Shown in pieces: positions 22,458 to 31,458 of a DNA stretch of 51,170 bases; positions within the stretch are counted from its first letter, which is position 1; each line of letters opens with the position of its first letter. The DNA comes from a bacterium. GTDB taxonomy: Bacteria > Patescibacteriota > JACMRA01. The notes below the pieces were generated by a model. That model made no database searches. It saw only the letters and a program-made list of their open reading frames with translations, and was not told the origin of the DNA. Both the position numbers and the translations under genes were made by a program. The stretch lies in the NCBI GenBank assembly GCA_043778555.1, contig JAYWFY010000059.1:1-51170 (forward strand). Direction: 5' to 3'.

Positions 22458-22653
22458 TTGACCCTTGTTAATTCAAACCCCTAAAAGACGTACTTACTTA
22501 ATTGTTGTACGGCTTTTTTACTATGGTAGAAATTTGCTAGAAATTTTAAATCTCCCCAAAGCTGGCGCTTTGACCCTCTTTGACAAGAGGGTGATTTGGC
22601 TTTTTATATTTTGATTGACAAGTAGCTTGATCTTTGCAACACTTCTATATATT

Positions 22654-24720
22654 ATGCCTACTAATCTTGAAACCATTAAACACAATATTACTCACGGGAA
22701 CACTCAAAGGTTGAGGAATATATTTGCAGGATTTGGCAACGGTTTAGACGCAAAAGATGTTTGTGATTTGTCTAATATTCACCCGTGGTTTTGTCATAAT
22801 CTTGAGTCATTTTATAATAAGCAAAAGGCTGGTCATTATGAATACTTTAACAATCAAATTAGCAACTATAAAATGGTTGACACTTGTGCAGGTGAGTTTG
22901 AGGCTTATACTCCATTTTTTTATAGTACCAAAAAAGTTGATAGTGATCCAGCTGGTAATGAGGCGACCGATGATTTGTACAATACAGGCAAAGCCAATTT
23001 TGATTATTTGATAGCGAAGGCACAAAAAGACGAGCGATCTTTAGTACTTGACGCTGTGTTATTTAATTGTTATGATAAGGTATTTGTCCAAAAACGTCGC
23101 TCAGATCGTAAATTCTTGCCCAACTGCTGGGGCTTGGTTGGTGGACACTTTATACGAAGTCAAAAAAGATTAAACTTAAGTACTATTTTTGAAGTACTAA
23201 ATGGAATTATTTATGAAGATACAAGCTGGAATCTATCAGAAATCAAATCAGTATTGGAAATTCGTGATTGGGAAAATGACGGTCAAAAAATGCGTACTGT
23301 CGTTTTTGAGACAATAGTCAAGGGTAATTTGGATCATCCAAAGCTAGATATGAACAAAGTCAAAGGCTTCTTATGGATTGACAAAGATGATCTGGAGATT
23401 TTTAGATTCAATCTCAATTATGAAGAAAATCTAATGTACAAGGTTTGTAAAAAAGCACTTGAGCTTCACCATCAACCTCAAAAAGTAATTATTCTTGGTT
23501 CTGGTCCGATTCGCATTGGGCAAGGTGTAGAATTTGACTATCTCACAGTTCATGCTGTTCAAGCTCTCCAAAAACGAGGTATCAAAGCCATTATTATTAA
23601 CAACAATCCTGAGACAGTAAGCACCGATTATAATACTTCCGACAGATTATATTTCGAGCCTTTGACTCCAGAGTTTGTAGCTCGGGTTGTGGAAAATGAA
23701 AAAGAAGGGTTGCTGGGAGTAATAGCTCAATTTGGTGGGCAGACGGCGGTCAATCTCGCTAGACCTCTAGAAGAAATGGGAATTAAAGTCTTGGGCACTA
23801 CAGCGAACGCTATTGACCTTTCTGAAGATCGTGAACTCACTGGAGGATTGATGGTAAAACTCAATTACAAAATGCCAAAATGGGACATAACTTACAAAAA
23901 AAATGAAGTGATAGATAAGTGCAAATCGGTTGGTTTCCCAGTTTTGATAAGACCATCTTTTGTGCTTGGTGGTGAAGGAATGCGAATAGTGTATAGCGAG
24001 ATTGAAGTGGAAACTTATTTACAGGATTATTTTGTAGGGGTAGAAACTTTTGACAAAGCCCTTTTGATAGATAAGTTTCTTGACGATGCCATCGAAGTAG
24101 ATGTGGACTTTATTACTGACGGTAAAAAAACTTATTGCTTTATCATGGAACAGCTCGACAAAGCTGGTGTACATTCTGGTGACAGTGCAAGCGTCTTTCC
24201 TTCACAAAGCCTTAGCCGAGAGATCATGGACAAACTGGTCGAAATGGCGCAAAAAATCGCCAAAGCGTTTCAGGTCATTGGCATTGGTAACTTGCAATGT
24301 GCAATCAAAAATAATGAGATCTACATCATAGAAGTCAATCCTCGAGCTAGTCGTACCGTTCCGTTTATTTCTAAGTGCCTAGGGTTTTCTTTGGCAGAAT
24401 TAGCTACCAACGTAATAATGGGTAGTGAGTTGCCAGAGTTTGACTTTGATTTAGATTATTACAAAAATCCAGTTTATGCCGAAACTCTAAAACAAAAAAT
24501 AGTTCACAAAGAACATCCAGTCGCTCACATTGCTCCAAAGTTTGTTGCTATCAAGTGGCCAGTGTTTTGTACGCATAAACTCATTGGAGTCAAATCTGAC
24601 CTTGGTCCGCTGATGAAATCTACTGGTGAAGCGATGACGGTTGGTAAAACCTTTGCAGAAGCCAAAGCCAAATGGGGCGAAGACAGGAATTTTGACAATG
24701 TAGGAGTTTATGAGGTGTAA
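22654..24720 (+). CDS. carB: C-terminal half of carbamoyl-phosphate synthase large subunit with an inserted Nudix-like domain and no MGS domain
   Basis: YKMVDTCAGEFEA, GSGPIRIGQGVEFDY, NPETVSTD, GVHSGDS, EVNPRASRT, LGPLMKSTGE; insert KVFVQKRRSDRKFLPNCWGLVGGH. Confidence 0.88.
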   Translation: MPTNLETIKHNITHGNTQRLRNIFAGFGNGLDAKDVCDLSNIHPWFCHNLESFYNKQKAGHYEYFNNQISNYKMVDTCAGEFEAYTPFFYSTKKVDSDPAGNEATDDLYNTGKANFDYLIAKAQKDERSLVLDAVLFNCYDKVFVQKRRSDRKFLPNCWGLVGGHFIRSQKRLNLSTIFEVLNGIIYEDTSWNLSEIKSVLEIRDWENDGQKMRTVVFETIVKGNLDHPKLDMNKVKGFLWIDKDDLEIFRFNLNYEENLMYKVCKKALELHHQPQKVIILGSGPIRIGQGVEFDYLTVHAVQALQKRGIKAIIINNNPETVSTDYNTSDRLYFEPLTPEFVARVVENEKEGLLGVIAQFGGQTAVNLARPLEEMGIKVLGTTANAIDLSEDRELTGGLMVKLNYKMPKWDITYKKNEVIDKCKSVGFPVLIRPSFVLGGEGMRIVYSEIEVETYLQDYFVGVETFDKALLIDKFLDDAIEVDVDFITDGKKTYCFIMEQLDKAGVHSGDSASVFPSQSLSREIMDKLVEMAQKIAKAFQVIGIGNLQCAIKNNEIYIIEVNPRASRTVPFISKCLGFSLAELATNVIMGSELPEFDFDLDYYKNPVYAETLKQKIVHKEHPVAHIAPKFVAIKWPVFCTHKLIGVKSDLGPLMKSTGEAMTVGKTFAEAKAKWGEDRNFDNVGVYEV

Positions 24721-24774
24721 ACAAGCTTAAAAAACTTTTGTACTGATTTTTTTGTAGATTAAAGAAGCACAGAA

Positions 24775-24818
24775 TTCATTTCTATTGCTAGAGGTACGTG
24801 GGTATTCCCAATTTGTAC
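24775..24818 (-). ncRNA. Candidate small structured RNA, copy 1 (orphan)
   Basis: Promoter TTGACA (24852-24847)-17-TACAGT (24829-24824); TACAAAT-TGGG-aata-CCCA-cGTA then TCTA-gcaa-TAGA; covaries with the copy at 27070-27114. Confidence 0.55.
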
Positions 24819-24857
24819 TATACACTGTAACAAACAACCAAAACCCTGTCAAATAAT

Positions 24858-24959
24858 ATGCTAGAATCAATCACAATCAAAAACTTTAAAGCGATACAAA
24901 GCGAAAAAGGTCTGACACTATCAGGATTAAAATATCATTATACAACTAAACCTTTTTAA
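24858..24959 (+). pseudogene. N-terminal stub of an AAA/OLD-like ABC ATPase
   Basis: MLESITIKNFKAIQSEKGLTLSGL..., which stops before Walker A. Confidence 0.5.
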
Positions 24960-25034
24960 ATAAATCAAATGCTTGACTAAAAAACCTATCGCTGTGATAA
25001 TGATAAGATATAATAAAACCTAATTTTAGTCGAA

Positions 25035-25791
25035 ATGCCAACTGAAGAAATATCATTTAAAGATAGAATTATAAATAGTATATTTTTTAGTTTCGTGAGA
25101 CTAGATTCAAAATGGAAATACCTTAAACCTTTTCAAGATAAAGTAAATGGTAAGTGGGGGATATAGACTTTTATATTTACATTCAACAGTAATACACCCA
25201 AAATTTGAATTTACCGATTATTTTACGTGTCTTGGATGTGATAAAACTCAGAGTGTTATTTACTATGATATTGATATAGATCAAAATCTTAAGCATCAAA
25301 CAAAAGCATTTAAACCAAAATTTGAATTTTTTAGTAATTATTCTGGTATTGCGTACGCTCGAGTAAAATTTGGAAATAAGGTAGGATACATAAAACAGGA
25401 TGGAACTTACCTTATCGAGCCTAAATTTGAAGAGGGAAATAATTTCGATTATGATTTTGCAGCTGTAAAATTAAATAATAAATGGAGTTTTGTTAAACCT
25501 AACGGATCATATCTATTCGCATTAAAATTTGATGACGCAATGAATTTTAGTCTGGAAGGATATACCGAAGGTTTTGCACCAGTAAAACTAAATGAAAAAT
25601 GGGGGTATTTAAAAATTGATGGAACATACCTTATCGAGCCAAAATTTAAAAGAGCTTATCATTTTAAACGCAATGGATATGGTGCAGTTTTATACAATGG
25701 TGAAGAAAAAAGTGTAGATTCAAGAGGGAAAATACTTGATATAGATTATTATAATGAACCTGATATAGATTATGGTAATTATATATTATAG
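25035..25791 (+). pseudogene. WG (KWG) repeat protein, frameshifted at a G5 run
   Basis: Repeats KVGYI..DG.YLIEPKF and KWGYL; the ATG 25035 frame ends VNGKWGI* and joins the main frame if one G at 25156-25160 is removed. Confidence 0.7.
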
Positions 25792-25831
25792 TCTTGATAA
25801 TTACTTTTTTAAAATTTCAAATTAAATTTAT

Positions 25832-26659
25832 ATGAGTATCCAACCCCAACCCAACAGATATATTCAGTTAGCTAAATTTCAGAAAATTGAAAATTTTAGA
25901 CTTGATACAATTTTAAAAGGAAATATTTATATGTCTTCTATTTTAAAAGGCTTTAATGACCCATATGAGTTTAGTATGGATTTTTCATTTGCAGACACTG
26001 CTGATGCTGGTGAATTAGTTAGTGCGTTTATAAACAGAATAAAAATTCCAGAAAGCAATGGTAATAGGTTCTCTGAAGTAATTTCTCGTTATATAAGATC
26101 TAAAGCTAGAATAAGTTGTTTTTGTTTTATAGGTGAAATCGAAACGAAAGGCAAAGGTTATTCAAAACCAAGTGAAGGCTATGAAATATCAAAAGTTTTT
26201 CTAGATCATAAGCACTGGAGTCAGTATGGTGATAATCATAAAGGTATGTGTATTTTGTATAATATTCCTACTAATAATGAAATAATAACAAAATTGCATA
26301 AAGTAAAATATGTTGATACTATTCCAAAATTAGAAAAAGAAGATTTTTTCTTTGATGAGGGTAAAATAAATATTGAAAAAACAATTGAAAATATAGGTGA
26401 CAAAATGATGTCTAATAAATCAAAATGTTGGATATCTGAAGGTGAATGTAGATTTTATCACAGCGAAAACAGCCAAGACTTAAATATGACAGGTTTTAAA
26501 AATTGTATTCAAGCAATTATCTTTGGATTAGAGTGTGATGTTGAATCCGAAACGATAAAGCTTTTCATAAAAGAACTAAAATCAAAAGATGAAAGTATCC
26601 AATTTATAAAACTAGTTAAAAATAGTAAATCGTTTGAGCCTGAACTAAGAGAATTATAA
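25832..26659 (+). CDS. DUF2971-family protein
   Basis: FNDPYE, ISCF, WSQYGDNHKGMC, K..CW..E.E.R. Confidence 0.8.
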   Translation: MSIQPQPNRYIQLAKFQKIENFRLDTILKGNIYMSSILKGFNDPYEFSMDFSFADTADAGELVSAFINRIKIPESNGNRFSEVISRYIRSKARISCFCFIGEIETKGKGYSKPSEGYEISKVFLDHKHWSQYGDNHKGMCILYNIPTNNEIITKLHKVKYVDTIPKLEKEDFFFDEGKINIEKTIENIGDKMMSNKSKCWISEGECRFYHSENSQDLNMTGFKNCIQAIIFGLECDVESETIKLFIKELKSKDESIQFIKLVKNSKSFEPELREL

Positions 26660-26671
26660 AACCCTATCTAT

Positions 26672-27073
26672 ATGAACGTACAAAAAACTAAAGATTATAT
26701 AAAATGGCATAGCCTTAAGACAAAAATAAACACTAGATCGAAGCTTGCAACATACAAAAAACGAGATGTATTTTGGTGCCATCTTGGTGAAAATATTGGT
26801 AATGAAGAGGATGGTAAAGGTCAAGACTTTTTGCGACCAGTTGTAGTTCTAAAAGTTTATAACAATGAATTTTGCCTTATTGCTCCTTTATCTTCCAAAG
26901 TCAAAACGAATAAATATTATGTTAATTTTATGTTTAACAAAAAACCACAATCTGCATTGATAAGTCAAATTAAATCTATTGATGTTCGTCGTTTTCACTA
27001 CAAAATGGGAACTCTTAGTCAGCAGGATTACACGCTGATTCTAACGGAATTTATAAAATCTCTCCAAAATTAA
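26672..27073 (+). CDS. PemK/MazF-family endoribonuclease toxin with no adjacent protein antitoxin
   Basis: RDVFWCHLGENIGNEEDGKG...RPVVVL...APLSS...SQIKSIDVRRF. Confidence 0.9.
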   Translation: MNVQKTKDYIKWHSLKTKINTRSKLATYKKRDVFWCHLGENIGNEEDGKGQDFLRPVVVLKVYNNEFCLIAPLSSKVKTNKYYVNFMFNKKPQSALISQIKSIDVRRFHYKMGTLSQQDYTLILTEFIKSLQN

Positions 27074-27114
27074 TCACCCCTTGCGGGGTTACATGTGGCT
27101 AGTGCCAATTTGTA
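27070..27114 (-). ncRNA. Candidate small structured RNA, copy 2, convergent with the PemK/MazF gene
   Basis: Promoter TTGACA (27148-27143)-17-TAAAAT (27125-27120); TACAAAT-TGGC-acta-GCCA-caTGTA then ACCCC-gcaa-GGGGT. Confidence 0.6.
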
Positions 27115-27170
27115 AACTAATTTTACCAAACTCAATCAATCCTGTCAAATTCTAATTTTAACCCATCCAT

Positions 27171-29207
27171 ATGAACGTACAAAAAACTCCTATTTATCAA
27201 TTCCTCGAAGGTGCCGGCAAATCCTTTGTGATTCCTGTGTATCAGCGTGACTACGCATGGACTATCGCCAACTGCCAAAAACTCTGGGACGATATTGTCT
27301 TTATGAAGGCTAATAGCAAACAAAGCCATTTTCTTGGTACTATCGTGACTATTGCCAATGATTTTCAAGAATATCTGGTGATCGATGGTCAGCAGCGGTT
27401 GACTTCTACCTCGCTTCTTCTTTTGGCTCTTCACAATTTTCTTAATTCTAAGAAGAATAAAACCCCGATTGAATCATCTTTGGCAGAACAGGTGTTAGAT
27501 TTTTTGATCAACAAGTATTCTCAAGATCAAAGTAAAAGAATAAGGCTCAAACCCAACAAAGGTGACAAGGATTTTTATGAGCAGCTTTACGACGGCAATG
27601 TCAACAATCTCGTCGATAGTAATATCAATTCCAATTACAACTATTTTTATAAGCAGATTGAGAAAAATATCTTGACACCTGTGGAGCTGTTTCAATTGTT
27701 TCAGCGACTAGAGATTGTGTTGATCTCGCTTGATCGAGGCGTAGATGATCCTCAGTTGATATTTGAAAGCCTCAACAGTACAGGAGTTGATCTCAATGAC
27801 GGCGATTTGATCCGCAACTATATCTTGATGGATTTACCGCCACAACAGCAGGAAAATCTGTACGCCAGCTACTGGATCAAGATCGAAAACTGTGTCAATG
27901 ACGTGGCCGAGTTTGTGAGAGTGTTTTTGATGCACCGCAACCAAGAAAATGTCCGCAAAACCAATCGAGAAATCTATAGCGAATTTCGGCTATACTGCGA
28001 AAGTAAATTTGCCAAAAACCCTGAGAAAACCTTGTCTGAAATGCTGGAGTTTGCTCAGATATACAGCTACTTTATATGTACGTCCAAGTTTCCAGATGCC
28101 AAGATTGGAGTTGCCCTCCATCGTATCTTTAAGCTCGAGGCTACGATTTGTTATCCATATATGCTAGATTTATTTTACGATTACAAAAAAGGTTTGGTCG
28201 GAGCTAATGTTGTTTTAAAGGCTTTGACGCTGATAGAATCCTACATTTTCCGTAAGGTAATTGCCGATGGCTCTACTCAAGGACTCAACAAATTCTTTTT
28301 GACACTATCCAAAGATCTCAAGAAAGACAAAAATTGGCAGAGCAAATACATGGATATTTTTTGTTCAATATTAATCAACCGTTCTTTCACACAAAAGTTC
28401 CCAACCGATGAGGAGTTTGTATTAGCCTTACAAGAAAAAGAAGTCTACAAATACCAGTCCAAAAATCGCAATTTACTTCTACATTCTCTTGAAAATCACA
28501 ATTCAGCATACAAGATTGATAGTGACGATTTGACCATTGAACACATTATGCCGCAGTCTTTGACAGCTGAGTGGAAAGCCAAATTGGGTACGAATTGGGC
28601 AGAGATTCACCGCAAATACCTACATACACTGGGCAATCTCTCACTGACTGCCAAGAATGCCGAGCTTGCCAATAGCGACTTTGCAACCAAACAAAAAATA
28701 GACTTTCAATCTTCAAAGCTGAAACTCAACTTTGATCTCGGCGGTAAGAACTGGAACGAAAAGACAATTGTTATGAGAGCAAGTAACCTAGCCCATGAAG
28801 CTATCCAAATCTGGCCTTATCCAATCAGTAAAATCGTAGTCAAAGTCAAAGAAAATGAGATTTATAATCTAGAAACCGAGTTTAATCCTACCAACAAAAA
28901 GCCTATCAAGTTTTACTTTGGGTTAGAATCTATGAATGTCAAAGCTTGGAAAGATCTGTTATCTATTTTGTGTAGCTACTTTTATATCCAATCGCCAACA
29001 GAGTTTAAAGCCTTGATCAATAGTCCAAAATTCTTCAAATATTTTTCGTTTGAAGGCAACAATAGGACACTAAAATCTCCGATCAAGTTTGCCACTGGAT
29101 ACTATGTTGAAAGTAATAAAAGTGCCTCAGATATTCTAGCAATACTATCCAAAATGTGTGACTTTTTGAAGTTTGATAAAACAAAAATACAGGTACAGGT
29201 AGAGTAA
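27171..29207 (+). CDS. GmrSD-like type IV restriction endonuclease (DUF262 + DUF1524 HNH) with C-terminal extension
   Basis: IPVYQRDYAW, VIDGQQRLT, IFESLNSTG, TIEHIMPQ, HTLGNL. Confidence 0.92.
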   Translation: MNVQKTPIYQFLEGAGKSFVIPVYQRDYAWTIANCQKLWDDIVFMKANSKQSHFLGTIVTIANDFQEYLVIDGQQRLTSTSLLLLALHNFLNSKKNKTPIESSLAEQVLDFLINKYSQDQSKRIRLKPNKGDKDFYEQLYDGNVNNLVDSNINSNYNYFYKQIEKNILTPVELFQLFQRLEIVLISLDRGVDDPQLIFESLNSTGVDLNDGDLIRNYILMDLPPQQQENLYASYWIKIENCVNDVAEFVRVFLMHRNQENVRKTNREIYSEFRLYCESKFAKNPEKTLSEMLEFAQIYSYFICTSKFPDAKIGVALHRIFKLEATICYPYMLDLFYDYKKGLVGANVVLKALTLIESYIFRKVIADGSTQGLNKFFLTLSKDLKKDKNWQSKYMDIFCSILINRSFTQKFPTDEEFVLALQEKEVYKYQSKNRNLLLHSLENHNSAYKIDSDDLTIEHIMPQSLTAEWKAKLGTNWAEIHRKYLHTLGNLSLTAKNAELANSDFATKQKIDFQSSKLKLNFDLGGKNWNEKTIVMRASNLAHEAIQIWPYPISKIVVKVKENEIYNLETEFNPTNKKPIKFYFGLESMNVKAWKDLLSILCSYFYIQSPTEFKALINSPKFFKYFSFEGNNRTLKSPIKFATGYYVESNKSASDILAILSKMCDFLKFDKTKIQVQVE

Positions 29208-29270
29208 ACAATACTTTTAATATGTCTATTTGAAGATTTTTAAAGGGCTGCTAATTGATCTGCTAATTAA

Positions 29271-29522
29271 TTAATCAATTTTTGTGAAGCGAGTTACTTT
29301 TTTATCATTCCAAATGATTTCATCTCTCCAAGTCTTGAGCAATCTACTAAAATATGGAAAGTCTGGATCAGAGTAATTGGCTTTATAAATAACATTAAGT
29401 TCATCTGGGTCTGCATGTTCAGCTATAAGTACGATTTCATACAAATCACCTTTGTAGTGCTGATAGAGTTCGCCTGCAATTGGAAGGTACTCTGGAATTA
29501 TTATTTTATCACCTCGTGCCAT
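29271..29522 (-). CDS. DUF1653 family protein
   Basis: YQHYKGDLY...A.H...VIYKA...RF. Confidence 0.85.
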   Translation of the reverse strand: MARGDKIIIPEYLPIAGELYQHYKGDLYEIVLIAEHADPDELNVIYKANYSDPDFPYFSRLLKTWRDEIIWNDKKVTRFTKID

Positions 29523-30558: not shown

Positions 30559-31458
30559 ATGTTTAAACGCAACCTTGTCGAAGGTCTCAAAAATATCACT
30601 CGATCTATCTGGATTTCTATTACTGCGGTTATTGTACTTACGGTATCGCTTGCTTCTGTAGCCTTGATTATAACTATGTCAGTTACCCTTGGTTATGCTG
30701 TTCGCAACATTGATAGATTAGTTTCTTTCCCAGCTTTCTTCAAAGAAAATGTAGTAGAAGAACAGATTAACAGTACTATATTGCCAAAGATTAAGTCCAA
30801 TCCCAATATCAAAAGTGTGGAGTATTTTGACAAAGAAAAAGCCAAACAAGCCGTCAATACTGGTGCCGTCAATGTTGTGTCTACTAGTCTAGGAGGCGAC
30901 GAAAATTATGCTTGGAGATATTTACTTATCACCCCAAACAAGTCCGAAAATTACACTGAACTAGTTAGTTTTGTTAAAGATGGAGACTATAAAGATGCCT
31001 TTGTAGAAGTTCCAGCTGATACCGTCGCTATTACCAAGCTTACCAAGTTTTATGAATGGGTCAATGTGGCTAGTGTAGTAACAATTATCATTTTTTCAAT
31101 AGTGGCAATATTAGTGATGTCCAATATTTTAAGAATGACGATTTATAACAACAAAGAAGAAATTGAAATTATGAGACTAGTGGGAGCAACTAACGCCTAT
31201 ATTCAAGGTCCTTTTATTACTCAAGGAGTACTTTATAATCTGGTTTCGGCGATATTAGTGATCATATTGTTTGTGAGTGGGATTAGCTTTGCAGCTCCTA
31301 CTCTGCGTTCATATTTAGGAGTCAGTAGTCTTACTAACGGTAGCGGTGGAGATCTCATTCCGCAGATATTCTTATCGTTAGGTTTGACTATGTTCTTGGC
31401 AATTGCGATGGGCGCTGTGACCGTTTATTTTTCAATTCAACGATACCTCAAATCCTAA
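30559..31458 (+). CDS. ftsX: Cell division permease-like protein FtsX
   Basis: 4-TM layout, EIEIMRLVGAT..YIQGPF. Confidence 0.9.
   Translation: MFKRNLVEGLKNITRSIWISITAVIVLTVSLASVALIITMSVTLGYAVRNIDRLVSFPAFFKENVVEEQINSTILPKIKSNPNIKSVEYFDKEKAKQAVNTGAVNVVSTSLGGDENYAWRYLLITPNKSENYTELVSFVKDGDYKDAFVEVPADTVAITKLTKFYEWVNVASVVTIIIFSIVAILVMSNILRMTIYNNKEEIEIMRLVGATNAYIQGPFITQGVLYNLVSAILVIILFVSGISFAAPTLRSYLGVSSLTNGSGGDLIPQIFLSLGLTMFLAIAMGAVTVYFSIQRYLKS

Follow-up and report, generated by a model that had tools for sequence, protein, structure and literature searches.

A toxin-less member of a small RNA gene family linked to PemK/MazF-fold toxins in a Patescibacteriota contig

MazF and PemK are textbook type II toxins, which are neutralised by a protein. 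The fold of ToxN is related to Kid/MazF. Other toxin–antitoxin modules rely on RNA. In the type I systems txpA/RatA and bsrG/SR4 of Bacillus subtilis, convergent genes overlap at their 3' ends; the toxins are small hydrophobic peptides and the RNAs, of about 100–200 nucleotides (nt), have long overlaps with them. CjrA is also cited, after Shen et al. 2016, as the antisense small RNA antitoxin of a type I system carried by the Campylobacter jejuni plasmid pVir (excerpts of PMC10470494 and PMC7826846). The present analysis concerns a stretch of 51,170 nt from a Patescibacteriota genome (contig JAYWFY010000059.1, hereafter the window), which carries two copies of a putative small RNA gene: copy B, convergent with a gene encoding a PemK/MazF-fold toxin, and copy A, which lies next to no toxin gene.

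Comparison of this locus with its relatives points to a large branch of the MazF/PemK family that has no protein partner and is accompanied instead by a conserved structured small RNA. The branch includes at least 1467 protein clusters (expectation value, E, ≤1e-5), many of them from small-genome uncultured bacteria. Copy A is a toxin-less, partly decayed member of this family of small RNA genes of about 50 nt, and the RNA is probably the antidote of the solitary toxin whose gene converges on it. The combined reading, in which copy A is the relic of a cassette made of a toxin and its RNA antitoxin, has somewhat better than even chances. The RNA family around copy A is more interesting than copy A itself. 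Should the RNA prove to be the antitoxin, MazF genes described as 'solitary' in metagenomes have in many cases been misread, and a widespread new regulatory RNA exists in organisms in which few are known. Furthermore, the toxin–RNA pair would be a compact RNA–protein switch, readily testable in E. coli. The orphan copies provide material for asking whether RNA antitoxins cross-protect and in which order modules decay, and strains that cleanly have or lack the cassette offer a rare view of module insertion into defence operons.

The RNA family and its link to PemK/MazF toxins

The original prediction placed a second copy of the copy B RNA, with compensatory base changes, at 24721..24855. The promoter, leader and stems that it described are all present, on the minus strand, but the extent has to be corrected, as 24721–24762 is an open reading frame (ORF) stub. 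The element proper and its parts are as follows (R1 is the covariance model described below).

24765–24852, minus strand: copy A, small RNA gene proper (promoter, leader, hairpins)
24847–24852, minus strand: -35 box TTGACA, 17-nt spacer (promoter scan)
24824–24829, minus strand: -10 box TACAGT, with TG just before it (promoter scan)
24808–24817, minus strand: 10-mer TACAAATTGG (pattern search)
24810–24816, minus strand: 5' leader ACAAAUU, with the putative transcript start at A24816
24799–24810, minus strand: hairpin 1, UGGG-AAUA-CCCA, then C; intact (family covariation)
24779–24795, minus strand: degraded hairpin 2 (alignment to R1)

Copy B is intact and faces its toxin gene.

27066–27148, minus strand: copy B, intact small RNA gene (R1, promoter and terminator calls)
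27143–27148 and 27120–27125, minus strand: -35 box TTGACA and -10 box TAAAAT, 17-nt spacer, 11/12 consensus matches
27105–27114, minus strand: 10-mer TACAAATTGG (pattern search)
27096–27113, minus strand: leader ACAAAUU and hairpin 1, UGGC-ACUA-GCCA, then C
27076–27089, minus strand: terminator hairpin CCCC-GCAA-GGGG, whose U-rich tail overlaps the PemK stop codon; sole terminator-like site that the terminator scan gave in 24000–28000
26672–27073, plus strand: PemK/MazF-fold toxin gene, partner of copy B (PF02452, E 4.9e-12)

The claim that the two copies are the same RNA was borne out by R1, a model built from 19 clean elements located beside PemK homologues in relatives, copy A being excluded. 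R1 was run over the whole window with filters off, and hits were listed to E≤10. Copy B scores 48.9 bits (E 4.5e-10) and copy A 34.2 bits (E 4.9e-6), while the best of the 20 other hits reaches 14.6 bits (E 1.2). As the score of copy A lies far above this background, copy A is a homologue and not a look-alike, and its sequence almost certainly descends from the PemK-linked RNA family.

The structure of this family is well supported. The R1 seed folds into a 4-bp hairpin 1 and a 7-bp hairpin 2, in which 93.3% of cells pair (70.2% in shuffles) and 10 of the 11 pairs display double changes. Its covariation score, 0.70 compared with 0.28, was reached by none of 500 shuffles and remains at or below 0.22 in slid controls. 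Among 43 hits located beside toxin homologues of many lineages, 96.8% of positions are paired (98.8% in hairpin 1), in an alignment that was fitted to R1 and is therefore biased towards structure. These rows conserve the leader ACAAAU, hairpin 1 and the C that follows, hairpin 2 being free in sequence and length; across lineages, hairpin 1 shows paired substitutions such as GGCA/GCC, GGGA/CCC, CCCA/GGG and CGAC/GUCG. The family plan thus comprises a sigma-70-type promoter, a probable start at the A of A(C/U)AAAU, the leader ACAAAUU, a hairpin 1 of 4–5 bp with a loop of 4–5 nt and a 3' C, then a variable terminator hairpin ending in a U-tail that overlaps the stop codon of the convergent toxin gene. 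The predicted length of the RNA is about 50 nt. Regarding the compensatory changes proposed between copies A and B, the pairing-preserving differences are real and agree with the covariation of the family, but hairpin 2 of copy A is degraded and retains four contiguous pairs. Rfam 15 gave no match at gathering score in the window, and none to the element at E≤1 in 16 loci.

Toxin homologues occur in 17 of the 26 genomes of the family to which the window belongs (49 matches in total). By eye, 28 of 30 related PemK loci carry on the opposite strand a TTGACA-17-TAnAAT promoter followed by an A/U-rich leader, then by a short hairpin and a terminator hairpin whose tail reaches the stop codon; of the two exceptions, one has nothing comparable (L018) and the other is cut by a contig end (L019). 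In the same 26 genomes, R1 gave 60 hits at E≤0.01 in 18 genomes. A hit was counted as PemK-linked when it lay at most 250 nt from a PemK match and was convergent to that match.

R1 hits of at least 45 bits: 33, of which 27 PemK-linked
R1 hits of at least 34 bits: 43, of which 29 PemK-linked
All R1 hits at E≤0.01: 60, of which 35 PemK-linked

Hits dispersed over the genomes and unlinked to PemK would, according to the original prediction, be those of a generic repeat. The proportion of linked hits in the highest class goes the other way, and the element is not a generic repeat. Indeed, R1 hits are found in 16 of the 17 toxin-bearing genomes and in 2 of the 9 toxin-free ones, a comparison that, the genomes being kin, does not amount to a statistical test. 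Several toxin matches without R1 hit carry a divergent copy of the RNA that can be seen by eye, for example the third PemK gene of this genome, on contig C66, so that all three PemK genes of this genome have the RNA.

The link extends beyond the family. A narrower toxin alignment retrieved 67 loci from assemblies labelled as many Patescibacteria groups and, for some, as Rickettsiales or Alphaproteobacteria. They contain 43 R1 hits at E≤1, all on the strand opposite to the toxin, 35 of which begin no more than about 80 nt from where the toxin match ends. In 151 genomes sampled evenly from the phylum, R1 hits at E≤1e-4 were found in 6, four of them from the family of the window, which implies that the element is patchy or that R1 is too family-specific. 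With a single toxin protein as query, a scan of the genome contig collection found no close relatives. A scan of metagenome contigs found one distant locus. Copies that phages might carry as decoys were also considered: a pattern scan of viral contigs gave two matches, both in a coding-looking stretch devoid of promoter or toxin, which are probably due to chance.

The partner of copy B is a soluble MazF-fold protein of 133 amino acids (aa). Its model, obtained from an alignment of 23 relatives, has a predicted local distance difference test (pLDDT) score of 86.7, and solved MazF structures are its best structural matches. The Arg-Pro motif and the following Ser/Thr position align with those of MazF, and the toxin has an extra N-terminal helix with invariant Trp and Lys. 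No MazE/PemI-like gene was found beside the three PemK genes of this genome or beside the toxins of relatives; the four MazE-like matches of the genome lie on contigs other than those of the PemK genes, and the ORFs upstream of the family toxins are unrelated to one another. On a Nitratiruptor plasmid (L158, 1173–1361), an ORF of 62 aa, resembling by eye a ribbon-helix-helix protein, is located 3' of a PemK homologue and its convergent RNA-like element.

Decay around copy A and mobility of the cassette

Copy A displays the promoter, leader and hairpin 1 of the family. Its promoter has 10 of 12 consensus matches plus the TG extension (promoter scan). TACAGT and ACAAAU are separated by 7 nt, compared with 6 nt in copy B and 6–7 nt over the family, and this constant distance would place the transcript start at A24816. 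Hairpin 1 forms in RNAfold. The 3' part is different: two of the seven family pairs of hairpin 2, the outer ones, are C-A mismatches and no U-tract follows (R1 alignment). The pairing left, UCUA-GCAA-UAGA (24781–24792), amounts to four contiguous A/U-rich pairs, and the family hairpin 2 is absent from the RNAfold prediction for copy A. Copy A has neither the terminator of the family (hairpin 2 and U-rich tail) nor, unlike copy B, a PemK/MazF-fold gene that converges on it with its stop codon in the RNA tail. With two pairs and the U-tract lost, termination is unlikely and a transcript would run antisense into carB. Copy A resembles a relic in the course of decay more than a functional gene.

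The surroundings of copy A also bear traces of loss.

22615–24720, plus strand: carB-like gene (carbamoyl-phosphate synthase large-chain domains), left flank, stop codon 24718–24720
24721–24762, plus strand: 13-codon stub TSLKNFCTDFFVD then stop, starting directly after the carB stop codon
24858–24959, plus strand: 33-codon ORF, starting 5 nt after the -35 box of copy A

As originally noted, no toxin precedes copy A, and only the 13-codon stub separates carB from the element. With respect to the RNA, the stub stops at the point at which toxin genes stop. When compared with the C-terminal 22 residues of 27 toxins of the family, it gives a best local score of 29, and a score of 25 with a toxin of the same genus, with LK..FCT.F in common. 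Among 3000 control 13-mers preceding stop codons in this genome, 0.8% reach its best score and 3.4% its mean score. These figures are suggestive of a remnant of a PemK C-terminus, and the idea that the stub is the tail of a deleted toxin is plausible, short of proof. At position A, the toxin gene would thus have been lost except for this tail, and the RNA gene would have kept promoter, leader and hairpin 1 and lost its terminator.

On the other side, the first 24–25 residues encoded by the 33-codon ORF are 72–80% identical to the N-termini of 500–580-aa ORFs in four relatives. The fragment has no Pfam match even at E≤10, and the full-length protein may be an ATPase. Being the N-terminus of a longer protein, this ORF is a truncated gene too. 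With a probable toxin tail on one side and a truncated ORF on the other, the RNA gene appears to survive between two deletions. Similar short stubs are found in other genomes of the family, namely G012, G017 and G007, where the open frames measure 46, 35 and 55 aa, respectively.

Loss of the toxin with retention of the RNA is not restricted to this locus. In relatives, retained RNAs lie beside at least five toxin genes broken by stop codons or frameshifts and beside three C-terminal remnants, and only one intact toxin has no visible RNA. The same genome carries a second toxin-less copy (contig C65, 1881–1938, L034), which scores 55.5 bits, has an intact terminator and is followed by a toxin tail of about 20 codons, then by two small ORFs that resemble by eye a Phd/YefM–YoeB pair. 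Furthermore, two of the three best R1 hits (64.9 and 62.7 bits) are toxin-less and intact and follow DUF1828/DUF1829 and Schlafen AlbA_2 genes. The toxin would thus be lost first and the RNA later, which is the order expected if the RNA protects against the toxin. Judging from these sequence traces, it is quite likely that copy A is a relic left after toxin loss.

In four relatives, carB orthologues are followed by different and unrelated DNA, with no R1 hit on these contigs, so that this comparison does not bear on whether a PemK gene once followed carB. The different DNA is consistent with copy A lying at the left edge of a defence islet, as originally proposed. The proposal of an orphan toxin-linked RNA at the edge of such an islet was largely right in kind, the antitoxin function being putative. 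The carB-like ORF itself is of unusual build and shows, in order, a short match to the oligomerisation domain, about 200 residues without Pfam match and one pre-ATP-grasp/ATP-grasp unit; relatives have a second unit, 33–38% identical, just upstream.

At position B, the toxin is flanked by a gene encoding a DUF2971 protein and by a GmrSD-type gene, and the unit formed by the toxin and RNA genes is bracketed by direct repeats.

26663–26689, plus strand: 27-nt direct repeat, left copy; toxin ribosome-binding region and first six codons (MNVQKT)
27162–27188, plus strand: 27-nt direct repeat, right copy; start of the GmrSD gene
27171–29207, plus strand: GmrSD-type (DUF262/DUF1524) restriction-like gene, directly downstream of the cassette

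The two repeats are identical at 25 of 27 positions (93%, family D5), so that the toxin and GmrSD genes begin with six identical codons and share a ribosome-binding region. Strain differences were seen in DNA contigs of sister samples, known over part of their extent. In one of them, whose DUF2971 gene is about 87% identical, position 26660 is joined to 27170 with nine letters of other sequence in between; this strain therefore lacks exactly the toxin and the RNA (26661–27169). In addition, the toxin P0068, 85% identical to that of the window, diverges at its N-terminus as far as the residue at which the repeat stops. Together, the repeat, the strain joint and the N-terminus of P0068 suggest that the cassette was fused in frame to the first codons of GmrSD and duplicated them. 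As a promoter scan found no plus-strand promoter-like site between toxin and GmrSD, the cassette would be transcribed from the operon. Toxin and RNA seem to travel together as a cassette of about 0.5 kb.

Other strain contigs step back by 2295 from a copy-B-like RNA body to the -35 flank of copy A. One, with a depth of 20, joins 27122 to 24828, that is a copy-B-like RNA body to the copy A flank, and another, with a depth of 3.5, joins 27113 to 24828 with ten other letters between them. A further contig has a 34-nt core (24783–24816) in common with copy A and a proper U-tail. Strains thus seem to differ in the occupant of position A, which may have been shaped by exchange between RNA copies through recombination.

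Clustered copies were also observed in relatives. One region of 1.3 kb (G025:C1:1114953-1116278; L023, L055 and L082) contains two toxin–RNA units and extra RNA copies, another (G024:C7:15986-16630) has two RNA copies ahead of one toxin, and locus L013 has two tandem toxin–RNA units with near-identical promoters.

The islet includes further candidate defence genes. The GmrSD gene matches the PADLOC models Orf5/HEC-06, and the DUF2971 protein (25832–26659) matches the PADLOC candidate defence family PDC-S31 (E 4e-26). A WG-repeat protein (25147–25791) has internal DNA repeats of 117/219 nt. No tRNA genes were found near the islet, and no tandem repeat arrays in 24000–29500 except three trivial two-copy AT-rich runs.

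Proposed mode of action and rival explanations

The RNA would be made from its own sigma-70-type promoter, start at the A of ACAAAU and begin with a single-stranded leader. Its strand is supported by the promoter and the U-tail. On the basis of linkage, conserved structure and order of decay, the RNA is probably the antitoxin of the convergent PemK/MazF-fold toxin. Assuming this role, the chances are slightly better than even that the leader and hairpin 1 bind the toxin protein directly, in a manner resembling type III systems and possibly as a pseudo-substrate. Several MazF enzymes cut at ACA-containing sites, which makes ACAAAUU attractive as a possible decoy substrate of the toxin.

The alternative that deserves most attention, although unlikely, is that the RNA antitoxin acts purely as a cis-antisense RNA, as in type I systems: it would pair with the 3' untranslated region of read-through transcripts of the toxin or operon and lead to double-strand cleavage and decay, copy A then being a functionless fossil. 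The convergent geometry, the overlap of the RNA tail with the toxin stop codon and the decay of copy A agree with this explanation, as does CjrA of pVir, cited as an antisense type I antitoxin (excerpts of PMC10470494 and PMC7826846). Read-through transcripts would moreover contain a perfect target of about 50 nt, given that neither a T-run nor a plus-strand promoter precedes GmrSD. However, distant lineages share the sequence of the leader and hairpin 1 while the remainder of the spacer varies freely, and a cis-antisense RNA needs no such conservation. High-scoring intact copies exist without any toxin gene. The RNA shows no excess complementarity to the toxin translation start compared with shuffles (17 modules, mean z +0.24), and the toxin is a MazF-fold protein rather than a small membrane peptide. 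Direct protein binding is thus favoured over a pure antisense action on the 3' end of the toxin messenger RNA (mRNA).

Alternatively, the element could combine a bidirectional terminator and an antisense promoter, and thereby insulate or tune its neighbours, such as the defence gene that begins just past the -35 box, its link with PemK reflecting a shared cassette history. Downstream genes do often start a few bases from the -35 box (24858 for copy A, 27171 for copy B and several relatives), copies are found after unrelated genes, and hairpin 2 is a generic terminator of variable sequence. This explanation is nevertheless improbable, as the conserved and covarying part is the leader and hairpin 1 and not the terminator, a single toxin family is tied to the element across lineages while the downstream genes differ, and these toxins have no other antitoxin candidate.

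Still less probable is the hypothesis that the hairpins act in DNA, as an attC-like or hairpin-end-like site for cassette recombination or insertion, of which copy A would be an empty example. It would fit the clean presence/absence polymorphism of the PemK–RNA unit, the other-strain contigs that join a copy-B-like body to the copy A flank inside the promoter, and the arrays and tandem copies of relatives. However, the cassette of position B is bounded by direct repeats located outside the hairpins, no integrase or transposase was seen beside the inspected modules, and a canonical promoter at fixed spacing and a U-tail indicate a transcribed RNA. Finally, a chance likeness of copies A and B in AT-rich intergenic DNA is extremely improbable and can be rejected: the 10-mer TACAAATTGG alone is no commoner than expected (11 matches with at most one mismatch for 8.2 expected), but copies A and B are the sole two matches in the 964,122-base genome to the composite pattern TTGACAGG-N20-32-ACAAATTGG (reversed control, 0), and R1 scores copy A about 20 bits over the window background.

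Several observations weigh against the reading of copy A as the relic of a toxin–RNA antitoxin cassette. Six of the 33 strong R1 hits and 25 of all 60 are not beside a PemK match, and the four non-PemK copies that were inspected follow unrelated genes, implying that the element can persist, and perhaps function, without toxin. The joints 27122 to 24828 and 27113 to 24828 suggest recombination between copies rather than simple deletion at position A. The stub has 13 residues and its likeness to toxins is modest (p about 0.01–0.03), and no PemK gene was found between carB and the element in any relative compared. The promoter, start site and termination of the RNA are deduced from consensus, and its antitoxin role from genomic association. 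The count of G-U versus A-C pairs, 5 versus 2, covers few cases and is a weak argument for the strand. As the hairpin lacks a T-run after it when read in the toxin sense and the scan gave no plus-strand promoter before GmrSD, read-through is probable and an antisense action quite possible. Furthermore, the ribbon-helix-helix-like ORF of the Nitratiruptor plasmid suggests that some relatives may use a protein antitoxin.

Comparison with described toxin–antitoxin systems

No description of a PemK-linked RNA of this kind was found in the full-text literature, subscription papers and supplements being outside its coverage. The phrase 'pemK RNA motif' is absent from the main text of PMC5737381 and was not found in the full-text literature.

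With type II systems MazEF and PemIK, the locus shares the domain and fold of the toxin but not the adjacent co-transcribed mazE/pemI gene. As regards type I systems, the RNA tail overlaps the stop codon, full complementarity arising only if the toxin mRNA reads through, and the translation start shows no extra complementarity; the toxin, a soluble MazF-fold protein of 133 aa, is not a small hydrophobic peptide. The arrangement is likewise convergent in the 3'-overlapping type I systems of B. subtilis, but here the toxin is much larger than a small peptide, the RNA has about 50 nt and its tail alone overlaps the coding region.

Type III systems (ToxIN, CptIN and TenpIN) also combine, as here, an endoribonuclease-type toxin with a small structured RNA as presumed inhibitor, and are likewise linked to defence islands and mobile DNA (excerpts of PMC3401426, PMC5086642 and PMC8860590). 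They differ by a tandem array located upstream of the toxin, instead of which a single RNA unit with its own promoter is found here, downstream of and convergent with the toxin gene. In addition, the toxin of the window is a true PF02452 member whose best structural matches are MazF structures.

The closest precedent may come from Campylobacterota. Toxin homologues are found on C. jejuni pVir, in CJIE4 prophages and on Helicobacter and Nitratiruptor plasmids. The PemK/MazF homologue of pVir (30630–31034) is 40% identical to the toxin of the window over 73% of the query and has no annotated neighbouring antitoxin. By eye, the four Campylobacterota homologue loci that were inspected have an opposite-strand promoter, hairpins and a terminator abutting the stop codon, and the Nitratiruptor locus follows the same plan of leader, hairpin 1, AC and hairpin 2. 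R1 gave no significant hit in these four loci (the best one for pVir, 12.8 bits, lies elsewhere in the locus), and the RNA region of pVir is longer (about 95 nt) and lacks the core formed by ACAAAUU and hairpin 1. The names used in the sources do not equate cjpT with the pVir PemK homologue, and the term cjpT does not occur in the relevant papers that were searched.

If cjpT is this homologue, experiments on this protein family already provide a precedent for the antitoxin role. What would then be new is a distinct, widely conserved RNA core in small-genome uncultured bacteria, together with the cassette behaviour and the orphan copies. Taken as a whole, these features could, tentatively and with less than even chances, define a new class of module: a MazF-fold endoribonuclease kept in check by one convergent RNA of about 50 nt whose conserved leader and hairpin bind it directly as a decoy substrate, carried by a promoter-less cassette of about 0.5 kb that fuses in frame to defence genes, toxin-less copies being kept for a time as cross-protecting 'anti-addiction' RNAs.

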